Source of the DNA: Azolla caroliniana
Taxonomy: Eukaryota > Plantae > Polypodiophyta
Direction: 5' to 3'
DNA: 64,000 nucleotides
NCBI GenBank assembly: GCA_043228905.1
Contig: JBHGNT010000010.1
Location: 16,430,001 to 16,494,000, forward strand
In this document: piece by piece, positions 27,110 to 59,526 of the stretch
How positions within the stretch are numbered: position 1 is the first letter of the stretch
How the letters are laid out: each line of letters begins with the position of its first letter
Position numbers and translations under genes: made by a program
The notes under the pieces: model-generated
Told to the model about the DNA's origin: nothing
What the model saw: only the letters and a program-made list of their open reading frames with translations
Database searches by the model: none

Positions 27110-27240
27110 GAGGTAGATAGGGGTAGTTTTGTATATACAGAAAACATACACACATTCATGGGTAGTTTTTCCTTTGTAAAATGCCCACCTATGAATGTGT
27201 GTATGTTTTCTGTATTTACAAAACTACCCTTATCTACCTC
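27110..27240. repeat. Inverted repeat (about 54-bp arms, 3 mismatches); MITE-like foldback
   Basis: gaggtagataggggtagttttgtatatacagaaaacatacacacattcatgggt is the near reverse complement of acctatgaatgtgtgtatgttttctgtatttacaaaactacccttatctacctc. Confidence 0.9.
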
Positions 27241-44227: not shown

Positions 44228-44289
44228 TGTAAAGAATCAAGAGATGGATTCTTGTGAAGCGGAAGAGATGTGAGTTATGTGTGTGAAGC

Positions 44290-44359
<70 letters not shown>

Positions 44360-44923
44360 TAGAGAATACGCAAGGTAAAAGTATATTGACAAAGGAGAAA
44401 GACTCAACATTATACAAGGTGGGAGGAGGGTGCTTTATGTAGTCACCTTCTCTCTTCATTAACTACAAGACTCATGGAGCATGGGGAATGTGAAAGCTCA
44501 TAAGTTATGTGTCATAGAATATGATTCTATGACTCATACTAAATGCTAGAATACAAAGTGGTGACTTAATGGTGACTCTTGACCGTTGGAGTGTCTATTC
44601 ACTCTCAAGGTGAGTTCACACACTAGACCAAGTTGAGCTTGATTCTCAACATGCCCCCTCAAGCTCAAGTCGGGTCGGTTTCAGACGGTATCTGAAATCC
44701 GCTTCGACTCGCGTTCCGGTGTCCGCGTTGACTCGCATCGACTTGCTTTATGCGGAGTTGCGGAATCCGTGCTCCAACTTGCGTTGTGCATAGTTGTGAA
44801 GTCTGTGCTTCGGCTTGCGTCTTTCTTCGCGGCTTTGAGCGGTAGATCGACTCTTCGCAGCTTCGTTGCGTGGTTTCGGAATCCACACGTTATTGCGTAA
44901 TGTGCGGTTGCGGAATCTACGCG

Positions 44924-46537
44924 TTATTGCGTAGTGTCTTGCGTACTCCCCCTCAAGCTTGGCAGGTCAAGGATCGTTAATCCGAGATCGGTCATGAATT
45001 GCCATAGCTTGTCGGCTCCTAAAGCCTTAGTGAAGATGTCGGCCATTTGAAGATTTGTGCTAATGTGTTGTAGGTCGACATCGCCAGCTAGAACACGCTC
45101 TCGGATGAAGTGATAGTGCACTTCGATGTGCTTTGTCCACGCGTGGAACACCGGGTTTCGAGCCAGATAGATACTGCTCATGTTGTAGTAGTAAAGGGAA
45201 GTCAGATCCTTGATGGGTACGCCCAAATCCTTCAAAATCCTCTTGAGCCATACGACTTCACACGCAGCTACGGCTGCGCCCCTGTATTCCGCCTCCGTAC
45301 TCGAAAGAGCGACGTTAGGCTGCTTCTTGCTACTCCAGGATATTGCTCCGCTGCTGAGGGAGAAAACAAATCCGGAGGTTGATCTTCTATCGGCTTTGTA
45401 GCCGGCCCAATCGGCATTTGTGTACCCCTCGAGTCGTATTGGCATCGCGGTTTTGTAGAGGATGCTGCAATCCATTGTGTTACTCACGTATCGTAGAACT
45501 CGCTTAGCGCAATCCAAGTGAGTATCATGTGGTGTTTGCATGAATTGGCTAAGGAGACCGACCGGATAACTGAGATCGGGTCGTGTGATCGTGAGGTAGA
45601 TGAGACTCCCGATGAGTTGCCAATACTGAGTCGGCTCACACACTTTGGTGCCTGAGTGCGCATCTAGTTTGAGATTACGATCGAGTGGGGTTGCCACGGA
45701 TTTGCACTCAGCCATCCCGAACTTGTATAACAAGTTGAGGATGTAGTGCCGTTGAGAGATCATGATTCCGGCCGGAGTCCAAATTACCTCGATGCCGAGG
45801 AAGTAGTGGAGCTCCTTCATGTCCGTCATCTCAAACTTGTCGGAAAGGAGGGATTTGACTTTATTGATTTCGATGAGATGCTCACCTCCAATGACTAGGT
45901 CATCCACATATAAGATGATGATAATCGGACTTGCGGAATCGCTTCGTATGTAGAGGGAGTTGTCCGATTTTGACATACGTAAGCCGATTTGATGAAGATA
46001 TTGCGTTATCTTCGAATGCCAAGCACACGGTGCTTGCTTGAGGCCGTAGAGTGGCTTCTTGAGTTGACAAACAACTTTCAGATGGGTGCTCGAGTTGAAG
46101 CCGGGTGGTTGGATCATGTACACCTCCTCTTCTAATTCGCCTTGTAGAAAGGCGTTCTTGACGTCCATTTGATGGAGGTGCCACCCTTTCGCCGCGACAA
46201 TCGCAATTACGGTCCGCACCGTCGTCATCTTTGCCACCGGGGCAAAGGTCTCTTCGTAGTCGACGCCATGCGTCTGAGCGTATCCATTCGCTACGAGTCG
46301 AGCTTTGTAGCGGTTGATGGAACCGTCAACGTTGTACTTCACTTTGTAGATCCATCTGCATCCGATCGCCTTTTTGTGGGGTGAAGTGGGAACGAGATCC
46401 CACGTCTCGTTCTTCCGTAGTGCCTGCATCTCCTTGTTCATTGCTTCGATCCATCGTGGGTCCTTCGCGGCTTCGGAAAAGGTTTCCGGCTCCCATACTG
46501 TTGCTACCTTCATCATAAAGGTGTAATGGTACGCCAT
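44924..46537 (-). pseudogene. Copia RT-RNaseH reading frame of element B (open but with degenerate catalytic motifs)
   Basis: 537-aa open frame. RNaseH motifs read YTNADWAG (usually YxDADWAG) and YYYNMSSI (usually YCDN). Confidence 0.85.
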
Positions 46538-46831
46538 ATAATCGTTGTAGCCGAATCGGCTTACGGGGTTCTTTTCACGAGTGGATCGACGGAGCTTCTC
46601 GTTTGCAGAGATGAGGGCTTTCTTAGCTCAAATTGGTACCTCGAAACCGCCGAACTCACTGTCGAGTGAGTGAGTCGACTCATCGTCGTCGACATGATCG
46701 TCTACGTATTCCGCCATTTTCGCCTTGCCTTTGTCCATCATTGGGCTAGGGCGTGATGTGCTTTGATCGCTCAAAGGCTCTTGTGGTCCGCTCAGTCGGG
46801 TTGTGATCGGACTTTCTTCGAACATGCGCGT

Positions 46832-47607
46832 TGTCGTGGAGAATGTGATTCACGATATAAAAATGAGCTTAAATGTTGTATTTAATAATATTTGAGAGAC
46901 TTGAACCCACATCCTTATAAACGATGTACAATGTACATACCACTAGGCTAGGCTATTTATTTGTAAAAGTTTGTAATAAATGTGCTTCATTTTATAAGAA
47001 TGAAGCTATATATTGTATTAAGTAAAATTTAGGGACTTGAACCCTCAACCTTGTATACCAAGCACCAAGCATACACCACTAAGCTAGGTTAGTTATTTTA
47101 GAATGCATTTTCATCATTATACTTATCCCATATCTATTTTCATACATAGCCATCATTCATCACATGCAATGCATGTGCGCCAAATGGCGATCATGCATTA
47201 CATGTAACTCATGCATTGCATGCATGCCATGCTCCCATACATTACCATATGCATGGCAACACTTATATAAAGAGGGGCAAGGGGAAAATAGGGGAAGGAA
47301 TAAAGGAAGAGAAAGTAAGAAATCAGACAATTTATTAAGCAAAGAAGCTAGCTCATTTGGGGAAGTGTCTTGTCTCTCAGAGTTGAAGTCGTGGGTTCAA
47401 ATCAAGGGTCGATAGAAAATGTGTTCAGTTTGCGATCAAGGATTGTAAAGTTGGTAAAATATTATACTTTTAATATACATTGAATGTTTATATCATATAC
47501 TCTTGTTCCTTGAATCATACTTCGTCTCAATCTTCTTTCTAGAATCATACTTTGTCTCAATCTTCTTTCTTGAATCATACATTGTCTCTATCTTTTATCT
47601 ATGCTCG

Positions 47608-47640
<33 letters not shown>

Positions 47641-47777
47641 TTACTCGTAACTCTTCTTCTTACTATCCTTAACCATTCTTTCATCACCATACAAGCCTTA
47701 TTAAAAGTTAAGTTTCTTCAACTCCCCTTAACCTTAGTCTCCGTGACTTCGCCGCACGAACCACAACTACCCCGACA
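46832..47777 (+). mobile_element. 946-bp solo-LTR-like insertion with 4-bp TSD (GCGT) inside element B
   Basis: Ends are TGTCG...CGACA, with GCGT at 46828-46831 and 47778-47781. Removing it restores the frame EDEDRLTRMFEESP. Internal TATA-like ttatataaa at ~47262. Orientation is inferred. Confidence 0.85.
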
Positions 47778-49949
47778 GCGTAAGGCGATCTTCATCCTCT
47801 ATCTCTTGTTCGGTGGATTCCGGGTCGAGCGAGGTCGGAGTTGAAGTTGTCTCTGGTGCGTACCAGGATGCGGACTCCTCAAAGACGATGTCTCGACTTA
47901 CTCGAGATTTTCGAGTTGAGGGGTTGTAGCACTTGTACCCCTTTTGCTCCAGTGAGTATCCTACGAGTATACATTTCTCCGACTTCGGGTCGAGCTTTTG
48001 ACGCTTCTCATCGGGGATGTGCACGTATGCAATGGAGCCGAATATCCGAACATGTGATAGGTTCGGCTCCTTTCCGAAGAATCTTTCGTGCGGAGTGACC
48101 TCGTGCACGCCGGATGTTGTGCACCGGTTCATTAGGTAGACAACCGTATTTGCAGCTTCGGCCCAATATGACTTGGGCATATGCTTCTCGTTCATCATGG
48201 CCCACGCTACTTCGAGGATGTGCCGATTTTTGCGCTCGGCTACCCCGTTTTGTTGCGGAGTGTGTCGGCAAGTGAATTCTCGCCGAATTCCTTCATTTCG
48301 GAGATATGCCGTGAAGTCGTCCGAGAAGTACTCCTTGCCGCCATCCGATCGAAGACAACGTACATGTCAGCCCGTGGCTTTCTCGACTTCATTCTTGAAA
48401 ATTTGGAAGTGTCTGAACACTTCGCTCTTTTGCCGCATCGGGTAGATCCAAGTGTGCCTAGAGAAGTTGTCGATGAAGAGCACGTAATATCAGCATCCGC
48501 CGAATGTACCCGTCTGCGCCGGTCCCCATATGTCGGAATGGACCACGTCGAGTAGACCTCTCCTCACATTCCGCTCTTTCGGGAATGGGTGTCGGTGTTG
48601 CTTGCCGAATTGGCACGCTTCGCATAAACCTTCAATCTCCTTTTCTTTGAATGTCGGGAGTCCGATGACGACTCCTTTCGATTTCATTGCTTTGAGTTTG
48701 TTGAGATTGATGTGGCCGATTCGCTTGTGCCACAACTCTATGTCGGAGTCGGCTTTCATGCCCTTTGCGAGCATGGCCGATTTCATCTCGTGTGGGTCGA
48801 GAATGAACATTCGGCCCTCTCTTCGTCCGCGTGCGATGAGTCGGCCCTCTTTTTCGATGAAGCAACCGCCTTGATTAAATCAAACTTGCATCCCTTGCAC
48901 TACAATTTGGCCGACGGAGACCAAATTCTTCGTAATGGTGGGTACATGCAAGACATTTTTAATGTAATTTTGCTTACCTTCTTTTCCGAACGGAACATTG
49001 CCGATGTGCCGAATCGGGTGCGTAGTGTCATCTCTGGTTTCGACATAACCGGGTCGCTCTGGCTCTCTAAGTTCTCGGAACCATTCTTGATGCGATGTCA
49101 TATGGTTCGAGGCACTGGAATTGACGAACCATACGTCTTCCGGACCGGAGGCACTAGTTGAGGTAGCGGCCGACATAGAGTTTGCTCTATGTTTCATCAT
49201 GAACATTCCGCCATGGTCGGAGTTGTGCGCATACATTCCGCCACGATCTTCGTAGTCGGAATTGTGTGCACACATTCCGCCACGATCTTCGTAGTCGGAG
49301 TTGTGTGCGTAATTCGTGAGTTGTCGGCTTGTGGAAGCCGATTCACGCATCTTCTTTCGGCACTCTTCTTCGTGGTGACCAAGTTTTCCGCAATATCCGC
49401 ATTCGGTTGCTTTTTGACGACTTGGGCCGGAGTGGAAGCTCCCCCTTCTTGCGAAGGTTCCTCGTTGGCCTCCGTTTTGCAGCTGAAATTGGGAGTTGTT
49501 GTCATAGGTCGGACCTCGTCCGCCTTGTCCTTGGCCGAATCGGCCTCTCGCTCGTCCGCATCCTCTTCCTCCATTAGAGTGCGTGTAGAACATGTGGCCT
49601 TCCAACTCATTGCTCCTTGTATGCACGTGGTTTTCTTCGACCAATAGCATTGATTGGAGCTCGAAGAAGGAGGGATGATTCTTGAAAGAGAGGAATGTGA
49701 GCAAAGGGATCTTGGATGTTGTACATTCAGATGTATGGGAACCGACTCAAATAGCCAGATTCGGTAGATGTCGATACTGTCACGTTTATCGACAACTTCT
49801 CCAGGCACACCTGGATTTACCCTATGGGGCAAAAGAGCGAAGTGTTTGGAGACTTCCAAAGATTCAAAAACGAAGTCGAAAAGGCAACAAGTCGGCATGT
49901 CCGATGGATTCGATCAGACGGAGGCAAGGAGTACTTCTTGGACGATTTT

Positions 49950-52900
49950 TTTTTTCACCATAAAACATATGCTCCATTGGTATTAATAAAAAGCCCGGAG
50001 GCAGTATACAAATAGTACATAATATTGTTTCATCTCCACCAGTATATCTGAAGTGATTCTAGCATTTGTAAAAACTGTTGGGAAAAAAAACAGCCATAAA
50101 ACACAACATTGATTCCAGTGATCTGCTGCAGAAAACAAAATTTCGGGCTCTTAGAACAGAACTCCATAGAAAACTTATATTTCACATGATATTCCATGTC
50201 CTCCGTCTTTCCACTCATATGTGTCATGTGTGGAGCTGTAAGAAGATTCACCATCCCAACAGAAACAGTTGCAAACAGATCTGAACTGATTCCAACATTT
50301 GTAAAAACTGTTGGGGAGAAAAAAACAGACCATGAAAATGAAATGTATTATACTAATCTCCACCTCTCACCCCATTTGCTTCGATCCCCACAACTTATTC
50401 ACTCTCCCTTCATGATGTGCTTCGGCCCCCTCACCATCATCACTCCTAAAAACAACCAAATTGCTTCATTCAATCCACCTCCACCATCTCGCCGAATGCC
50501 ACCAATGTTCTGTGGAATTAACAACAAAATAAGTAAAAAAATTCCTCATCCCCTCATGAGCTGCTTCGATCCCCCCCACCATCATCACTCCTAAAACAGA
50601 CACATTGCTTCCTTTAGTCCACATCCACCATCTCGCCGAATACCACCAATGTCTTGTGCAATGAATAAACAAAAATGAGAAATTGTTCCTCATCCCCTCA
50701 TGATTTGCTTCGTTCCCCCGCACCATCGTCACTCCTAAAAACAGAGAAATTGCTTCAATCAAACCACATCCACCATCTCGCCGAATACCACCTTTGACCT
50801 ATACAAATAACAACAAAAACAAGTGAATAATGGTTCCTCATCCCCTCATGATTTGCTTTTGTCCCCCCCACCATCATCACTCCTAAAAACATACAAATTG
50901 CTTCAATCAATCCACATCCACCATCTCGCCGAGTACCGCCAATATCCTGTGCAATTAACAACAAACTAAGTGAACAATGATTCCTCTCCCCTCTTGATCT
51001 GCTTCAGTCCTCGCACCAACACCACTCATCCTCACACCATGACAAAGTTGCTTCAAATCCCACTGCCATCATCCCGCAACCTATGAGAACCATAATATCT
51101 GTCTTAAGTCAGCCCATATCTGGGGTATCTTGCTTCCCCTATTCCACCTCACCGATTAACGCGGCCCTGTAATCACAACAAAAAATGAGCGAAAAACCAT
51201 TCCTCGCCTTCTCATAATAATCTGCTTCAACCCCCACTCCAACATCACTCATCCTAACCACATAAAACAGAAAAACGGCTTCATCATGTCCCCATCTACC
51301 ATCTAGCTATCTCCGATTCGACAATCCTGTTACACTAACAACCAACAAACGAGTAGAAAACAAACAGAAATCCTCACCTTCTCTTAGTAATCTTCGACAA
51401 CCCCCACCAACATCAGTCATCCTAATCACAAAACAACTTAAACCTATTTCAACCTGTCCACATCCACCATGTCGATGTCTCTGATTATCACACGAAATCT
51501 GCCTCATACCACTAAAATCTTCTTATACTAGTCTGATTCAGCATCCAGAACATCATCCCATTTCCTCATATCTTCTTCTAGCATATGTAAATCTTACCTA
51601 CATTAAAATAAGCTTCCTACATGCCGCCACCGTCTCCTCCCTGTTATCTCATGTTGTTCGCTATAAGAATGGTACTGGTGGCGGGAACAACCAACGAGGT
51701 GGCACATAATTCCACCTAACCTCCGTGCCTGCATCTAACATTATAGGAATAGCTAACCAAACTCGTCGCAATCTCTTTCTTTTTCGAATGGTTGTGTTTC
51801 CATAGACTTTATACCTGTCATACTCACCTTTAACCGAATGTACTAATAAATTCCAAAAGACTTTACGTGATCCACAACGTGAATGTCTTCATCATTGTAT
51901 AACTTGGAGCACCTAGCTTTCCAAAGAACCCATAGAGACAACGAGGAGACAATCTGCCAAACATAACTCCGCGAGAAGAACTTGACTCCCTGCAAGGATC
52001 TTGAAGTAGAATATACCTGAAAACTTCTTACATATAAAAACAATGAAGAATGATTATAATGATAAAAAGCCCTTTGTTGATCCAACATTCCCCAAAAGAC
52101 TGCACCCCACGTAAAAATAGCAGACCTATACTTATGACCTAGAAGCCTAAGAATTCGACACCAATTTTTTTTTGCGGAAACACATTCCCAAAATGCATGA
52201 TGCAATGTCTCATCCACAAACCCACACATAATACATGACCGATTACTCACCGATCCCCTCAATAAATGACCTATTGGCAATGCATAATGAATCATCAACC
52301 ACCGAAAATGCAATATCTTATTCATGCATTTAATAGACCAAAACTGTTTCCAAAACATAACCATATGAGTAGATGAAACATTACCTTCCTCCCAATACTT
52401 TTTTCCAGCAGGTATCGGCTCGGTCTGCCTCAACATAAAATTCCTGCCAAACGCTACTGAATATTTGAAAAAAGGAAGGAGCTTAGTCGAAGAGTTAGAT
52501 ATGGATAATTTCCAACCATAATCTGTTGGATCCCACTGCAGGTCATCAATAGGTTTAGAGTCTAACACCGAAATATGAGATGAAAAATTAACTATTAGTG
52601 GACTAGGATCGATATATATATGTTTATCTAATCTAGCAATTACTCGCACTGGCAATTGCTTCGCAACCAACATGATTTGAGACTCCTCATCCACTAGTAT
52701 CAACCTACCATTGTCCAACACTTCATAAAAATAAATGCTACCATTTTGATCATATAACCGAGCTCCTATAAGTATATTGAGTGTCGAGAACATACCGTAC
52801 CAACTCTGAAAATGATCGAATTGCAATGTAGGCACTGTGACCTGATACACCCTGGACAATTGTGATAACATGATCTTAGCCCCTCTTAAGTTAGATAACC

Positions 52901-55461
52901 TATTACTTTGCTCCAACGTAGAGGACTGCATAAACCTTATCCAATCCGCAACCGTACGAGCTGGTCCACTATCCATTGCAGCCCATGATAACCTAGGACA
53001 TAAACCCAAAACACATGCAGCTTCATCAGTAAATAAAGGATTCCATATCAATGGTTGACGCATAAATTGATGATAGCTTTTCGGTGGCAAGAAAACAAGC
53101 GCTTGCCGAAGAGTTTCCCATGCCCGAAAAATTCCATTGAAGAAATGCAATGATCCATCATTGGATTTAGGTAGCTGGAAATCTACATTAAAGAACCATC
53201 TAAGACTATCCTTCCATTGACCACCTACCGAAGGCTTGACCTTATATAGATGTTGCATCCATAGCTTTTTCCATAACTCCTGTCCTGGCAATAAACTCCT
53301 AACAACATGTTTAGTAAGTAAAGCTTTGCTTTGCATAAATGGATCAATCAAACCTAAACCACCTTTTTGTTTAGGTTGTATTAGAATAGACCAAGCTACC
53401 TTTGCTACAGGATTGACTGACCTATTGTTCCCCCAAATAAAATTCCGTACTAAATGTTGAACTTTCAACGTTATTGACCTAGAAAACAGCCATGTAGATG
53501 CTATATACCAAATCGAGGACAACAACACCACATTAGCTACAACTACACGTCCTGCTAAAGATAATTTTTCTTTATTCCAATATACTAATTTATTTCTTAA
53601 TCTTAACAATAAGGGTGCAATCATATCTTCTGACTTTAATCCCACACCCACTCGACAACCTAAATACCTAATGGACTGACCTTGAGGTATCCATGTGAAT
53701 CCTAAAGAGGGTACATTAACTGGCGGATCTCCCGAAGCGAGCCAAAAACCTGATGACTTATCCCAATTTATCAAATTATGCACCCGATGCATCTGAGAAA
53801 TCATCCACGGCCTTTTGCACACGAAACAAATTACCATGTGAGGCCTGAACATATAAAGCTGTATCATCAACGAATTCACAATCCACATTTGCGTTTGCTA
53901 CTGGTAGTGCTAAACCTTTAATATTTACATATGGAGAATTTAAATGTACAGAGAATGCTTCGGATACTAACAAAAACAGGAAAGGAGCAAGTGGACATCC
54001 TTGGCGTACAGATCTTGAAATAAAAAAACGCCTACCAATGTCCCCTGCAAATAATAGAGAACTACTTGCATTACGATATAATGCTGAAACTCCTCGTATC
54101 CAATTACTTGGAAAACCCATCCTAACGAGTGTTCCCTCCATAAAATCCCAGTCCACTCTGTCGTAAGCTTTTTCAAAATCAAGAAATAACACCGCCAGAT
54201 CTTGCTTCTGCACTTCAGCGATGGTCACCATTTCCCAAAAGAGAATAATATTATAAAAAATACTTTGCTCTTGCAAAAAACCTGTATGGGTATCATGAAT
54301 CAACTCCGAAAGATAAGGTTGTAACCGTCTAACTATCGTTTTGCTAATATCTTATAAATAACATTCAACAATGTAATTGGTCTCCACTGGCTAAGCTCTT
54401 CTAACTGTCCACTTGTTTTAGGAATCATATAGATTAAACCCTCCTTCCATTCTTGGGGCATATTTCCAGAATCTAAAATTTGTTGATAGGCCTTAGTCAG
54501 CCCATCACCTATCAAATCCCAATACTGGATATACCATTGAACTCCCAACCCATCCACACCAGGACAAACATCCTTTGCAAGGGCTTTTACTGCTTTAAAA
54601 ACCTCTTGAGTACTTAATGGTTGTAAAAGACAACGTAAAAGATTTCCAGAAACCCTATTCTGAACCCTAGACCATATAATGTCCCTCTTAACCATATCAG
54701 CCTCAAAAAATGCTCTAGCTTTTAACAAAGCTTCATAATAATCAGAGGCTATTTGTCACATATGGCTAGGATCCGTGGTATAAGAGCCATCAGGACATCT
54801 TAATCTAGATATCCTAGCTGATGACTTATGATGATTATGCACTACAAAGAACAACTTGTTGACTTTATCTCCCGATTCTGCCCATGTGGATGATGTATTG
54901 TGATAGTTAAAATCAACAGAAATCTTTTGTAAGTCCAATATTTGATTCCCTACTTGAACCACTCGAGCACTTATATAACTCGAATGTGGTCTTCTCTCTT
55001 GCAAATGTTGCAGGGATTTCAATCCCCTACGCAACCTACCTATTTTAGTTAAAGATGCATAAAATACTTGTTTAGCCTTCCTATAAAAAAATTGTTGTGT
55101 TTCACTAATAGCCTTGTGAACACTAGATAATGCATAATCATAGGAGTAGTCATACTTATTCCAAATATTATGCACTGTAGGGGAACAATCTGGGCTAAGA
55201 AACACATGATTCAGAATTCTAAACCTTGAGTTCTTATACTGCTCCTGTAAAACTATAACTAACCGAAGCGGTGCATGATCAGAAAAGGAAAATGAAGGTA
55301 TGATTCCAATGGAACCTCCTTTGTCCCACAAAAACTTATCAACATAAAATCTATCTAACCTAGACAAATTTGCATGTGATTGTCTTCTATCTGATCTTGA
55401 ATACTCTAAGGAATCTTGTATCCTTGTAAAAGAAGACACATAAAAAACTTATCAGCATAAA
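49950..55461 (-). mobile_element. 5'-truncated L1-clade LINE with poly(A) tail and ~17-bp TSD
   Basis: ORF2 pieces 55439-51661: endonuclease SRLDRFY/SDHAPL, RT WRPITLLNVIYKILAK, LDFEKAYDRVDW, VRQGCPLAPFLF and FVDDT, and zf-RVT CIMC...ETLHHAFWEC, with several frameshifts. The T-run at 49946-49955 is the poly(A). TSD acttcttggacgatttt (49933) vs acttctcagacgatttt (55462). Confidence 0.93.
50400..51480. repeat. Tandem array of ~145-bp units in LINE 3'UTR
   Basis: ccatctcgccga recurs at 50484, 50628, 50773 and 50921, with more diverged units toward 51480. Confidence 0.85.
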
Positions 55462-58295
55462 ACTTCTCAGACGATTTTACAGTGTACCTCTAAAAGGAAG
55501 GAATTCAACGAGAATTCTCATGCCGACACACACCTTAGCAAAATGGAGTAGCCGAACGGAAAAATCAGCACATAGTAGAGGTGGCAAGGGCCATGATGAA
55601 CGAGAAAAACCTGCCAAAATCGTACTGGGCAGAAGCCGCAAACACAGTCGTGTACCTCATGAACAGGTGTACAAATCGGGGGTACATGACGTAACCCCTC
55701 ATGAGAAGTTTTTCGAAAAGAAGTCGGGCCTATCACATGTCCGGATATTCGGCTCAATTGCCTACATGCATATTCTCGACGAGAAGCAACAAAAGCTCGA
55801 CCCAAAGTCGGAAAAATGTATCCTCGTAGGGTACTCACTCGAACAAAAAGGGTACAAATGTTACAATCCTTCTACCCGAAAAGTTCAAGTAAGTCGAGAT
55901 GTCGCTTTCAACAAGTTGGCCTCCTGGTACGACCCAAAGACGACTCCAATTTTGGCTCAAGTCGACCCGGAATTGGCCGAACGAGAGATCGAAAACGAAT
56001 TTCGACTCGGACACATGTTCAAAGAAAGTCTGATTACGACAAGGCTTAGTGGACCACAGGAGCCCCCGAGTGACCAAAGCACATCTCGGTCAAGTTCGAA
56101 ACTGGACAAAGGGAAGGCCAAAATGCCAGGATACGAAGCTGTAGTTGACATCGAGTCAACTCACTCCCTTAAAGTGAGTTTGAAGGCTTGGACATTCTAA
56201 TCATCCGGAGGAATGGAGTGAAGAAAGCCTTAGACTCTGCAAACGAGAACTTCGTCGCTCCACCCGAGAGAAAAATACGGTCAGCCGATTCGGCTACAAT
56301 GAGTATATGGCATATCATTATGCTTTTATGATGAAGGTGGCGATAGTCTGAGAACCGGAAACCTTTTCTGAGGCAGCCAAAGATCCACCATGGATCGAAG
56401 CCATGAATGAAGAAATGCAGGCTTTAAGAAAAAACGAGACATGGGATCTTGTTCCCCATACTTCAAGCAAGAAAGCAATCGACTGTAGATGGATTTTCAA
56501 AGTAAAATATAATGTCGACGGCTCGGTAAATTGCTACAAGGCGCGACTCGTAACTAATGGATACGCTCAAACACACGGAGTTGAATACGAGGACACCTTT
56601 GCCCCAGTGGCAAAGATGACGACTATTCAAGCGATCATTGCACTTGCAAAACCAAAAGGATGGTACCTCCACCAGATGGACGTAAAGAATGCCTTCCTCC
56701 TAGGCGAATTAGAAGAGGAGGACTTCATGATTCAACCACTCGGTTTCAAATCAAGCAAACACCCGAAAGGAGTATGCCGACTCCAAAAGCCTTTATACGG
56801 CCTCAAGTAAGCATCCCGTGCTTGACATTCTAAGATCACCCAGTATCTGCACCAAATCTGCTTCCGAACGTCAAAATCGGACAACTCCCTATACATCCGA
56901 AACAAGTCGAACAACCCGATTGTCATCATCATGTACGTGGACGATCTGGTCATCGGAGAAAAGGATATTGTCGAGATCAATAAGGTCAAATCATTCCTAT
57001 TCGGCAGAATCGAAAAGAAAGATATGCACGAGCTCCATTACTTCCTCGGTATCGAAGTAATTCGGACACCAGTCGAGATATTGATCTTTCAATGGCACTA
57101 CATCCTCAACTTACTCTACAAGTTTGGAATGACAAAGTGCAAACTTGTGTCTACCCCTCTCGATCGAAATCTCAAACTCAATGTTGATTTGGGAATAGAC
57201 AAGTGTGAGTCGACTCAGTATCGAGAACTGATCGGTAGCCTAATCTATCTAACCATCACACGACCCGACCTCAACAATTCGGTCGGCCTACTTAACCAAT
57301 TCATGTAGAATCCTCGAAATGTTCATCTCGATTGCACTAAGAGGGTACTTAGATACATCTGTGGGACGATGGATTTCAACATCATATACAAGTCGGATAC
57401 GATCATTCAACTTGAAGGGTACACAGATGCAGATTGGGCCGACTATAAGGCTGATAGACAATCGACTTCTGGATTCGTCTTCTCCCTCGGTAGCGGAGTG
57501 ATCTGCTGGAACAACAAAAAACAACTGACAGTAGCATTGTCGAGCACAGAGGTCGAATACAGGGGCGCGTCAATCGTCGCCTACAAGGTCGTCTTGCTAA
57601 AGCGCATATTGAAGGATTCGAGTGTTCCCATCAAGGATTGATTCTCCTATACTGCGACGACATGAGCGGTATCTACCTAGCTCAGAACCCTGTGTTCCAT
57701 GCGTAGACTAAGCATATCAAAGTGCACTATCACTTCATTCGAGAACGCGTGTAGGTTGGAGATGTCAATTTACAACACATCAACATGAATCTTCAGGTAG
57801 CCGACATCTTCACAAAAGCCCTAGGGATCAACAAGTTGCAATAGTTCGCGATGAACCTTGGTCTCTCAATCACCGGTCATCCGCGCTTGAGGGGGAGTAC
57901 CGAAAAACAACAGTAATCGTCGATGTCGAACAACAGCCGATCAGTCGATCGAAGCCGACCAAAGGAGTCGAAGTACGATAACAATCGAGCAAGAGTCGAA
58001 CAAGAAGCACAAAGTAATCGAGTAGTCGAAAGCTGAACAACCGAAACAACTCGAAAGCCAAAGTTGATTCAGGCGAATCGAAGTTTTCTCGAAGATCAAA
58101 CCGAACGAACGTTTCGACATCTGGAAGTTGTGTTCGAAGGGGCGTGTTGAGAATCGAACTCAACTTCCCATAGAGACGGTGTTCACACTAGCCAATGGAC
58201 ATCATACTAGGCTAGATTTGTATTTGTTAAAAAGGGCACTTGCCCTAGATCAATTGGTATTTAAACCAACCTTTTGTAACTTAGTTACTGTTGGA

Positions 58296-59526
58296 TGTAT
58301 AAAGAATCAAGAGAAGTATTCTGTGCAGCGGAATAGATATGAACTGTGTGTGTGTATGAGAGAGAGAAAGAGAGAGTGAGAGAGACAAGGAGTAAGACAC
58401 AGAGAATACGCAAGGTAAAAGTATATTAACAAAGGAGAAAGATTAAACGTTATACAAGGTGGGAGGAGGGTGATTTATATAGTCACCCTCTCTCTTCATT
58501 AACTACAAGACTCATGGAGCATGGGGAATGTGAAAGCTCATAAGTTATGTGTCATAGAATATGATTCTATGACTCATACTAAATGCTAGAATACAAAGAG
58601 GTGACATAATGGTGACTCTTGACCGTTGGAGTGTCTATTCACTCTCAAGGCGAGTTCACACACTAGACCAAGTTGAGCTTGATTCTCAACACGCCCCCTC
58701 AAGCTCTAGTCGGGTCGTTTTCAGACGGTATCCGAAATCCGCTTTGACTTGCGTTCCGGAGTGCGCGTCGACTCGCGTCGACTTGCATTTATGCGGAGTT
58801 GCGGAATCCGTGCTCTAGCTTGCGTTGTGTGTAGTTGCGAAGTCTGTGCTTCGACTTGCGTCTTTCTTTGCGGCTTTGCGCGGTAGATCGGTTCTTCGCT
58901 GCTTCGTTGCACGGTTGCAAAATCCACGCATTATTGTGTAGTGTCTTCAGTACTCCCCCTCAAGCTGGGCAGGTCAGGGACCGTCAATCCGAGATCGGTC
59001 ATGAATTGCCATAACTTGTCAGCTCCTAAGGCTTTAGTGAAGATGTCGGTCGTTTGATGATTGGTGCTAATGTGTTGTAGGTCGACATCGCCAGCTAGAA
59101 CGCGCTCTCGGATGAAGTGTTAGTGCACTTCGATGGGCTTTGTCCCCGCGTGGAACACTAGGTTCCGAGCCAGATAGATACTGCTCATGTTGTCGAAGTA
59201 AAGGGAAGTCAGATCCTTGATGGGTACGCCTAGATCCTTGAGTATCCTTTTGAGCCATACGGCTTCACATGCGGCCATTGTCGCGCCCCTGTATTCCGCC
59301 TCTGTGCTCGAAAGAGCGACGATTGGTTGCTTTTTGCTGCTCGAGGATATTGCTTCGCTGCCGAGGGAAAAAACAAATCCGGAGGTTGATCTTCTATCGG
59401 CTTTGTAGCCGGCCCAATCAGCGTCTGTGTACCCCTCGAGTCGTATTGGGCATCACGGTCTTATAGAGGATGCCGCAATCCATTGTGCTGCTCACGTATC
59501 GTAGAACTCGCTTAGCGCATCCAAGT
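58296..59526 (-). mobile_element. Copia element D (same family as B): RNaseH fragment, PPT and 3' LTR (58296-58691)
   Basis: LTR and adjacent internal sequence closely match 44228-45520. Similarity stops abruptly near 59526. Confidence 0.92.

Follow-up and report, generated by a model that had tools for sequence, protein, structure and literature searches.

What might three pairs of tRNA-type promoter boxes be doing within a single long terminal repeat (LTR)? The question is raised by an insert in a stretch of 64,000 nucleotides of the Azolla caroliniana genome (assembly GCA_043228905.1, contig JBHGNT010000010.1, positions 16,430,001 to 16,494,000 of the forward strand), termed ‘the window’ here. 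An initial inspection of its sequence (the original prediction) had proposed a solo LTR with three A-box/B-box ‘cassettes’, which would serve either for transcription by RNA polymerase III (Pol III) or as barriers that shield the element's own promoter from silencing.

The insert and its parts

The insert runs from 46832 to 47777 on the forward strand and has the limits first claimed for it: it opens with TGTCG, closes with CGACA and is flanked on both sides by GCGT, a target-site duplication (TSD) of the NCGN type (46828 to 46831 on the left, 47778 to 47781 on the right). Since neither a primer binding site (PBS) nor a polypurine tract (PPT) adjoins it, this copy is a solo LTR, belonging to a Phygy-like Ty3/gypsy family; in its full-length relatives the PBS lies 3' and the PPT 5' of the LTR on the forward strand of the window. 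Its insertion host is the internal region of a Ty1/copia element (44924 to 48366, reverse strand), with a reverse transcriptase (RT) frame at 44924 to 46627 and an integrase frame at 47767 to 48366, which we take to be of copia type by their motifs rather than by a family scan.

A second copia copy is present in the window, and an empty-site comparison with it failed, the junction being too diverged to align. The two copies (44280 to 49950 and 55430 to 59450) are 72-78% alike and oppositely oriented; they lie on either side of a broken LINE (51843 to 55448) and have LTR-like repeats, related to one another, near 44300-45200 and near 58300-59200. Beside that LINE lies a tandem repeat of four copies of 144-148 bp (50375 to 50974). 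Elsewhere in the window (27110 to 27240), a 54-bp inverted repeat, 94% complementary and with a 23-nt loop, is a possible miRNA precursor or small MITE.

All six box motifs are found at the predicted coordinates and on the predicted strands, with spacers of 32, 32 and 33 nt. Cassette 1 (46898 to 46950, reverse strand; A box 46950-46940, B box 46907-46898) and cassette 2 (47033 to 47086, reverse strand; A box 47086-47076, B box 47043-47033) are antisense in U3, and cassette 3 (47349 to 47403, forward strand; A box 47349-47360, B box 47394-47403) is sense, in R/U5. Three A/B-box pairs are indeed present, but the first two do not count as independent units, belonging as they do to one tandem duplication with a 136-bp period (46842 to 47098; two units, 75-77% identical). 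Between these two paralogous cassettes the boxes are identical at 20 of 21 positions, the spacer at 20 of 32 and the flanks at 35 of 80.

A TATA box (47264 to 47271, forward strand), found at the same place in related families, presumably belongs to a Pol II promoter, a start being presumed there from the sequence and not from a mapped site. The cassettes point away from it, as had been observed, two antisense upstream and one sense downstream; the A box of cassette 2 is 178 bp upstream, a position common to other Phygy families, and cassette 3 is 85 bp downstream. Between cassette 2 and the TATA box lie an AT-rich stretch (47100 to 47145; 75% A+T, 67% identity between family representatives), which may be the seat of TFIIIB, and a palindromic core (47162 to 47205; fold z -2.2), common to several cassette-bearing Phygy families. 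The core is a candidate transcription-factor site or hairpin, and a 20-nt motif within it (47178-47197) has 1949 exact matches in the genome, versus 0 for a control. Beyond the B boxes, the first T runs stand at +35 after cassette 1 (T5, 46859 to 46863, reverse strand), at +7 after cassette 2 (T4, 47024 to 47027, reverse strand) and at +65 after cassette 3 (T4, 47468 to 47471, forward strand, within the LTR), of which the first two may be used as Pol III terminators. A sigma-70 promoter scan was discarded as inapplicable to a plant LTR.

Box pairs without a tRNA

The scoring matrix for the boxes was derived from tRNA genes in the same assembly (19 box sets, some of which look organellar). On this scale, cassettes 1, 2 and 3 reach 28.1, 29.4 and 30.0 bits, against 23.0-34.3 bits for the 37 tRNAs scored; the best of 500 dinucleotide shuffles, at 22.1 bits, falls below all three, and the rest of the 64-kb window holds no other A/B-box match above 19.6 bits.

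The absence of a clean cloverleaf, remarked upon from the start, holds. On the insert, ARAGORN reported no tRNA at its default setting and noise alone at a relaxed threshold, Rfam gave nothing at the gathering score (chance matches only), and the acceptor stems of the cassettes are paired at 2-4 of 7 positions, versus 7 of 7 in 10 tRNAs. On these grounds, the identification of the cassettes as tRNA genes was rejected. Among 16 representative cassettes none has an acceptor stem (0/16), and all 16 have AT-rich DNA upstream (62-90% A+T). The layout is that of a type 2 Pol III promoter, with A and B boxes at tRNA spacing and AT-rich DNA upstream. A BLAST comparison of the 16 cassettes with a partial tRNA set returned B-box matches of 12-17 nt only, and so does not point to any particular source tRNA.

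The parent element

A search for the full-length parent, proposed along with the original prediction, led to an autonomous Phygy-like gypsy element. Used as a query against the genome (40 of 1309 candidates scored), the insert gave 40 full-length matches with the same termini, itself included; the others are 89-94% identical to it (89-100% with the self match). Paired copies bound elements that are mostly 7.5 kb in length and carry a PPT, 4-bp NCGN TSDs and a PBS of what we take to be the tRNA-Trp type. The TSDs are exact in 7 of 11 LTR pairs or arrays and differ at the first base in the other 4, and the LTRs of 10 pairs are 97.5-99.9% identical.

In one copy, open frames for gag-protease and pol fill nearly the whole interior. 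On the open pol frame, Pfam identifies RVT_1, RT_RNaseH, Integrase_H2C2 and rve, with Chromo absent; this is the gypsy order RT-RH-INT without a chromodomain. An NCGN preference with a 4-bp TSD and a short element (~7.5 kb) with frames that span its interior are further traits of Phygy, a short non-chromovirus lineage of which NCGN insertion preference is a stated mark in the relevant passages of Neumann 2019 (PMC6317226). The name ‘Phygy-like’ is accordingly given by domain order, TSD and length, and not by an RT reference tree. The closest named proteins are liverwort (Riccia) polyproteins, the best of them ~70% identical.

Some copies form tandem arrays that share LTRs (loci L038-L042), such as one with four LTRs, a 6185-bp period and a single CCGC TSD (C20:9722674-9742141) and one with three LTRs at 7154 bp (C14:15511290-15526564). 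At another set of loci (L012 versus L010 and L016, on C11 and C18), equal flanks and TSD surround a full element at one site and a solo LTR at the other, in what looks like a duplicated segment of which one copy has recombined.

Conservation within the family

Other copies keep the boxes: of the 37 distinct LTRs of the family, 35 have three cassettes that each reach 19 bits, and across this family the boxes and their spacing are retained while the sequence between them diverges, just as a single copy had suggested. The further expectation, that the boxes would be conserved above their flanks, stood for cassette 3 and failed for cassettes 1 and 2, which lie in an evenly conserved U3. In an alignment of 24 LTRs (one per element), boxes 1 and 2 have 2 shared variants in 42 columns, versus 10 in 315 columns for the rest of U3. 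R/U5 is variable, and there the boxes of cassette 3 have 1 shared variant in 22 columns versus 60 in 143 columns of spacer and flank, a contrast that is based on two or three haplotypes, so that its columns are not independent. These boxes hold across haplotypes with very different spacers; since the whole block from the TATA box to the B box is conserved, they may partly ride along with it.

The same layout in other families

Four samples of elements were drawn blind to the boxes, by the core motif, a chromovirus PPT, the Trp-type PBS and the Met-type PBS. Among them, an antisense cassette ~110-280 bp upstream of the TATA box recurs in a number of Phygy families that have diverged from one another, as well as in an unrelated chromovirus of Tcn1-like type. 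In the core-motif sample (four or five families, with three loci that are second LTRs of one element), an antisense cassette lies 91-114 bp from the core in 29 of 30 loci, and the thirtieth retains both boxes around a spacer deletion; in shuffled segments, any cassette match was seen in 1 of 150. Identity between seven family representatives is 0.77 in the A box and 0.80 in the B box, compared with 0.57 for the spacer, 0.67 for the DNA upstream and 0.46 for the downstream flank, which across families is filled with indels. Among ten more distant cassettes, middle-spacer identity averages 0.31, and the spacer length of 31-33 nt is retained.

The PPT-anchored sample comes from the second carrier. 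In 25 of its 30 loci the 5' end of U3 holds an antisense cassette that scores 17 bits or more, with ~110-125 bp between cassette and TATA box; three loci are identical, and of the misses two are tandem units that have been truncated. The RT of this carrier is ~25% identical to that of the Phygy element. Pfam detects Chromo (E 3e-14) and SH3_Tf2-1 in this family (L229-L231), with the chromodomain after the integrase; no PBS motif is present, and the sequence that follows the LTR is, by eye, complementary to a stretch inside the LTR, as for a self-priming element. Tcn1 is described as a chromovirus without a tRNA PBS (Neumann 2019, PMC6317226; Novikova 2010, PMC2864245), and the second carrier is called Tcn1-like by its chromodomain and lack of PBS rather than by comparison with an RT reference set. 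Shared alleles per column in this sample number 0.73 in the A box, 0.55 in the spacer and 0.30 in the B box. A further locus (L238:4049-5111) has three tandem 354-bp units, each made of the chromodomain, the PPT and the first bases of a Tcn1-like LTR.

Many families are without cassettes. Among the first 90 Phygy elements with a Trp-type PBS on one chromosome, the element's own LTR holds a cassette that scores 19 bits or more in 10, and a decayed one in 2 more; the cassette-free remainder consists mostly of GC-rich LTR families, and the U3 of Phygy families without cassettes is rich in GC and CpG. No cassette was found in 30 elements with a Met-type PBS (0/30), AT-rich LTRs included. Over the 200 bp before the TATA box, a span that overlaps the cassette, G+C averages 0.35 in 8 carriers versus 0.49 in 56 others.

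Exact box patterns have 543, 145, 93 and 4195 matches in the genome (true tRNAs are among the 93), and their reversed controls have 0 throughout. At the first 30 loci of the 4195-match pattern, 28 matches are in reference LTRs, all antisense. In metagenome contigs, 48 of 80 loci have a usable flank or a match, and a cassette of at least 20 bits is present at 16 of these 48, and at none of the six JGI-named loci among these; of the 11 carriers checked, 6 are 92-97% identical to families of this genome and so are not independent, and 4 align at only 69-74% to the loci compared.

Several minor variants of the layout were encountered. Non-autonomous Phygy derivatives of 3.2-3.6 kb (L232, L233, L247 and L248) have gag only and keep the antisense cassette, and the LTR pairs of three of the four are nearly identical. 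In another family (that of L306), two tandem degenerate box-like units lie below the score threshold in a Phygy R/U5 (L371:6810-7030).

The arrangement of two antisense cassettes and one sense cassette is repeated, with unrelated spacers, in the L090 family, and a TATA box flanked by cassettes on both sides occurs in L090, L381 and L442 as well. Pointing away from the TATA box is a rule with exceptions: the L383/L385 family, known from metagenome contigs, has a sense cassette in U3, ~215 bp before its TATA box. This cassette (L385:6548-6600, also in L383) has AT-rich DNA and a CAA triplet upstream.

Cassettes on both sides of a promoter bring to mind a roadblock or damper, in which a bound Pol III complex would stop read-in from outside, help termination in the 3' LTR or limit the element's own expression. 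Yeast Pol III complexes are described as blocking intergenic Pol II read-through and repressing adjacent genes (PMC4228148), and the elements at hand insert mostly inside other transposons. We nevertheless judge a roadblock to be very unlikely, in that the genomic RNA must itself pass cassette 3 in the 5' LTR and the U3 cassettes in the 3' LTR, and many families have only the upstream cassette.

A second alternative is a functional short RNA, whereby antisense Pol III transcripts (and one sense transcript) would act in trans or in cis, for instance as silencing decoys or in tuning the LTR. Complete boxes, AT-rich DNA upstream and T4 or T5 runs 7, 35 and 65 nt after the B boxes are what such a gene would have, and U3 is also where foamy viruses encode small RNAs made by Pol III (PMC3993851). 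The evidence across families nonetheless renders this alternative improbable: no cassette has a hairpin beyond chance (z 0.57, -0.14 and -0.45 versus shuffles), the spacer sequence is unconserved, the first T run may follow the B box by as little as 1 nt or as much as 113 nt, and just 3 of 16 cassettes are preceded by a CAA triplet. In the principal Tcn1 subfamily, moreover, the B box is ~16 nt from the end of the LTR, so that the RNA would leave it.

Origin and evolution of the cassettes

In an RT tree (rooted by one long outgroup, with an unsettled bootstrap), the 19 cassette-free rows, including L299, form one branch (100/99), with the carriers outside it on several branches; in a Gag tree (a quick build), cassette-free rows appear in more than one place. 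The cassette is absent in L280 and L299, and weak in L282 (18.1) and L285 (14.4). With root and supports this rough, the pattern fits an old cassette that may have been lost more than once in Phygy. The spacers of the Tcn1 and Phygy cassettes are at chance identity, which is compatible with a separate gain of the Tcn1 cassette as well as with its uptake from Phygy.

It had been allowed that the cassettes might turn out to be independent SINE insertions. Judged by eye and not against a SINE library, they have no TSD or tail of their own, and insertion of a tRNA-derived SINE was rejected on the finding that 28 of 30 box-pattern loci are in LTRs at a fixed place. Similar cassettes do occur in repeats that match no reference LTR (L235:4960-5040, L236:5070-5150, L245:4900-4965 and L246:4870-5160, the last with two facing cassettes and a local duplication), possibly a SINE or MITE family and the source of the LTR cassettes.

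Such repeats are among the points that speak for a passive SINE or tRNA relic. An ancestral LTR would have captured a SINE head by its promoter, and the captured piece would persist within a slowly evolving promoter block, or bind an unrelated Pol II factor, with no part played by Pol III factors. Most Phygy elements have no cassette, boxes 1 and 2 within the family and the A box of Tcn1 have no excess conservation, and ‘not a few’ LTRs in Repbase are said to contain tRNA-like pieces (Kojima, PMC10886601). What makes a relic unlikely is the survival of both boxes and of the 31-33 nt between them in cassettes whose spacers have fallen to 0.31 identity and whose downstream flanks are indel-filled, together with the recurrence of the layout in two lineages with 25% RT identity and its retention after tandem duplication.

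A further alternative is that the cassettes are landing pads that attract Pol III-targeting integrases. We give this almost no credence: at 25 of 30 cassette loci the match to the locus's own LTR continues for 161-400 nt upstream (of the rest, three belong to diverged families and match only briefly, with no visible insertion, and two are non-LTR), 0 of 7 reference LTRs lie within 1.5 kb of 30 tRNA loci, and Phygy targets NCGN.

Relation to known systems

The nearest relatives in kind, absent from the original prediction, are the Helenus (TRIMp3) elements (Kojima 2024, PMC10886601), which likewise have a tRNA-like LTR sequence kept at boxes A and B without a functional tRNA, and likewise occur as solo LTRs and tandem arrays; their origin is proposed to lie in SINE capture. 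Helenus elements are, however, non-autonomous and 311-1263 bp in length, whereas the carriers described here include autonomous elements of 5.6-7.5 kb, and the parent of the insert, at ~7.5 kb with open gag and pol, is not a non-coding element under ~1.3 kb. The boxes of Helenus are proposed to make a template RNA, whereas the cassette that is shared here is antisense, with up to three per LTR. That study covered only elements under ~1.3 kb, does not state box orientation or speak of mosses in its main text, and voices the expectation that autonomous partners use Pol II and share no long LTR stretches (PMC10886601). Cassandra TRIMs resemble the present family in having Pol III promoter boxes in plant LTRs and tandem arrays, and differ from it in their 5S-type promoter, their non-autonomy and the use of Pol III to make the element's RNA (PMC10886601). 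The window family is thus not Helenus or Cassandra by membership, but is of that kind by its parts.

The proposal that Pol III transcribes the element from the boxes in the manner of Cassandra was the part of the original prediction that had to be abandoned. The shared cassette is antisense (as are two of the three in the window) and the sense one meets a T4 run after 65 nt, so that the cassettes cannot make genomic RNA. Tandem arrays with shared LTRs would be expected of a template made by Pol III, and so would boxes that lack the fold of a tRNA, as those of Helenus do (PMC10886601); with elements of 2.5-7.5 kb that have gag-pol frames and a TATA box, we regard such a template as extremely improbable.

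Two further systems bear comparison. Foamy viruses (Kincaid 2014, PMC3993851) also place Pol III A/B cassettes in the U3 of an autonomous, Pol II-transcribed LTR element; theirs give hairpin miRNA precursors by experiment, whereas those considered here have no hairpin and are known from sequence alone. The tDNA and TFIIIC (ETC) sites of yeast and mammals are, like those described here, boxes that yield no useful RNA and stand next to a Pol II promoter, with the difference that they are host loci and the present cassettes are carried in an LTR (PMC9540200, PMC11346459, PMC4228148). By this analogy, the LTR cassettes would most likely work as tDNA and ETC sites do.

The descriptions of Phygy and Tcn1 in the portions of PMC6317226 and PMC2864245 that were covered contain no Pol III boxes in LTRs, and ‘polymerase III’ has 0 occurrences in the latter. 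Searches of the open-access literature turned up no description of antisense A/B cassettes in the LTRs of autonomous Phygy or Tcn1 elements. A tRNA-like LTR sequence in non-autonomous TRIMs is thus known already; for antisense A/B cassettes in autonomous Phygy-like and Tcn1-like LTRs we found no report.

A proposed role for the cassettes

The parent is an autonomous 7.5-kb element with a TATA box, and the parts that have been kept are boxes of the kind that TFIIIC reads, together with AT-rich DNA, about one nucleosome from that TATA box. This combination favours a module that works at the level of DNA, and we put at not quite an even chance the reading in which the A/B boxes are TFIIIC sites that keep the neighbouring Pol II promoter open. 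TFIIIC would bind the boxes and position TFIIIB on the AT-rich stretch that separates the cassette from the TATA box, and the resulting complex would hold a nucleosome-poor, bounded region on a few unmethylated source copies, upon which selection would act; short Pol III transcripts (~75-130 nt) would be by-products. That TFIIIC places TFIIIB upstream on AT-rich DNA (PMC13578239), that tRNA genes sit in nucleosome-poor regions (PMC11346459) and that they act as barriers in yeast and animals (PMC9540200) is described in the texts cited.

Several observations limit the scope of a TFIIIC-based opener. The module is dispensable, since ~80 of 90 Trp-type and 30 of 30 Met-PBS elements have no cassette; a CpG-rich U3, as in cassette-free Phygy families, may be an alternative route to the same end. 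Most inserted copies are not shielded, since the CpG of the B box decays about as fast as that of the spacer: genome-wide, the CG of the B box has become TG at 1496 and CA at 1699 matches; in the Tcn1 sample the CG is intact in 12 of 26 B boxes, compared with 14 of 26 spacers. TG and CA are both common in inserted copies, so that a CpG asymmetry (CA tolerated, TG not) does not discriminate. Since the module leaves most inserted copies unprotected, only source copies would stand to benefit from it. Evidence from yeast points in two directions, in that Pol III complexes may equally stop or repress transcription by Pol II next to them (PMC4228148), and the need for Pol II to cross the U3 of the 3' LTR counts against an opener. 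Contigs from three RNA runs that cover the 5' 669 bases are uninformative on start, strand and level.

A more far-reaching version is also less probable. In it, two unrelated autonomous gypsy lineages would each have incorporated the boxes in U3, at roughly the distance of one nucleosome from the TATA box, using TFIIIC and TFIIIB as a portable chromatin opener or barrier, and sister families would have swapped in a CpG-rich U3. If true, this two-lineage version would amount to a natural plant insulator of the tDNA type, selected by transposons; in the portions of the review on plant barriers that were covered, such a role for TFIIIC or tDNA sites is cited for yeast and animals only. Autonomous retrotransposons would have an extra way to remain expressible inside heterochromatin, and Pol III boxes in LTRs would extend from the promoters of TRIMs to a role that does not depend on a transcript. 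Thousands of natural cassettes at a fixed place in the LTR, with cassette-free sister families as controls, make the role directly testable. If false, the cassettes would still be a large source of tRNA-like false calls. As to tRNA genes proper, five loci on C5 and C2 (L139, L140, L146, L147 and L156) hold tRNA-Lys(TTT) and tRNA-Ile(TAT) genes in tandem clusters that include numerous variant copies.
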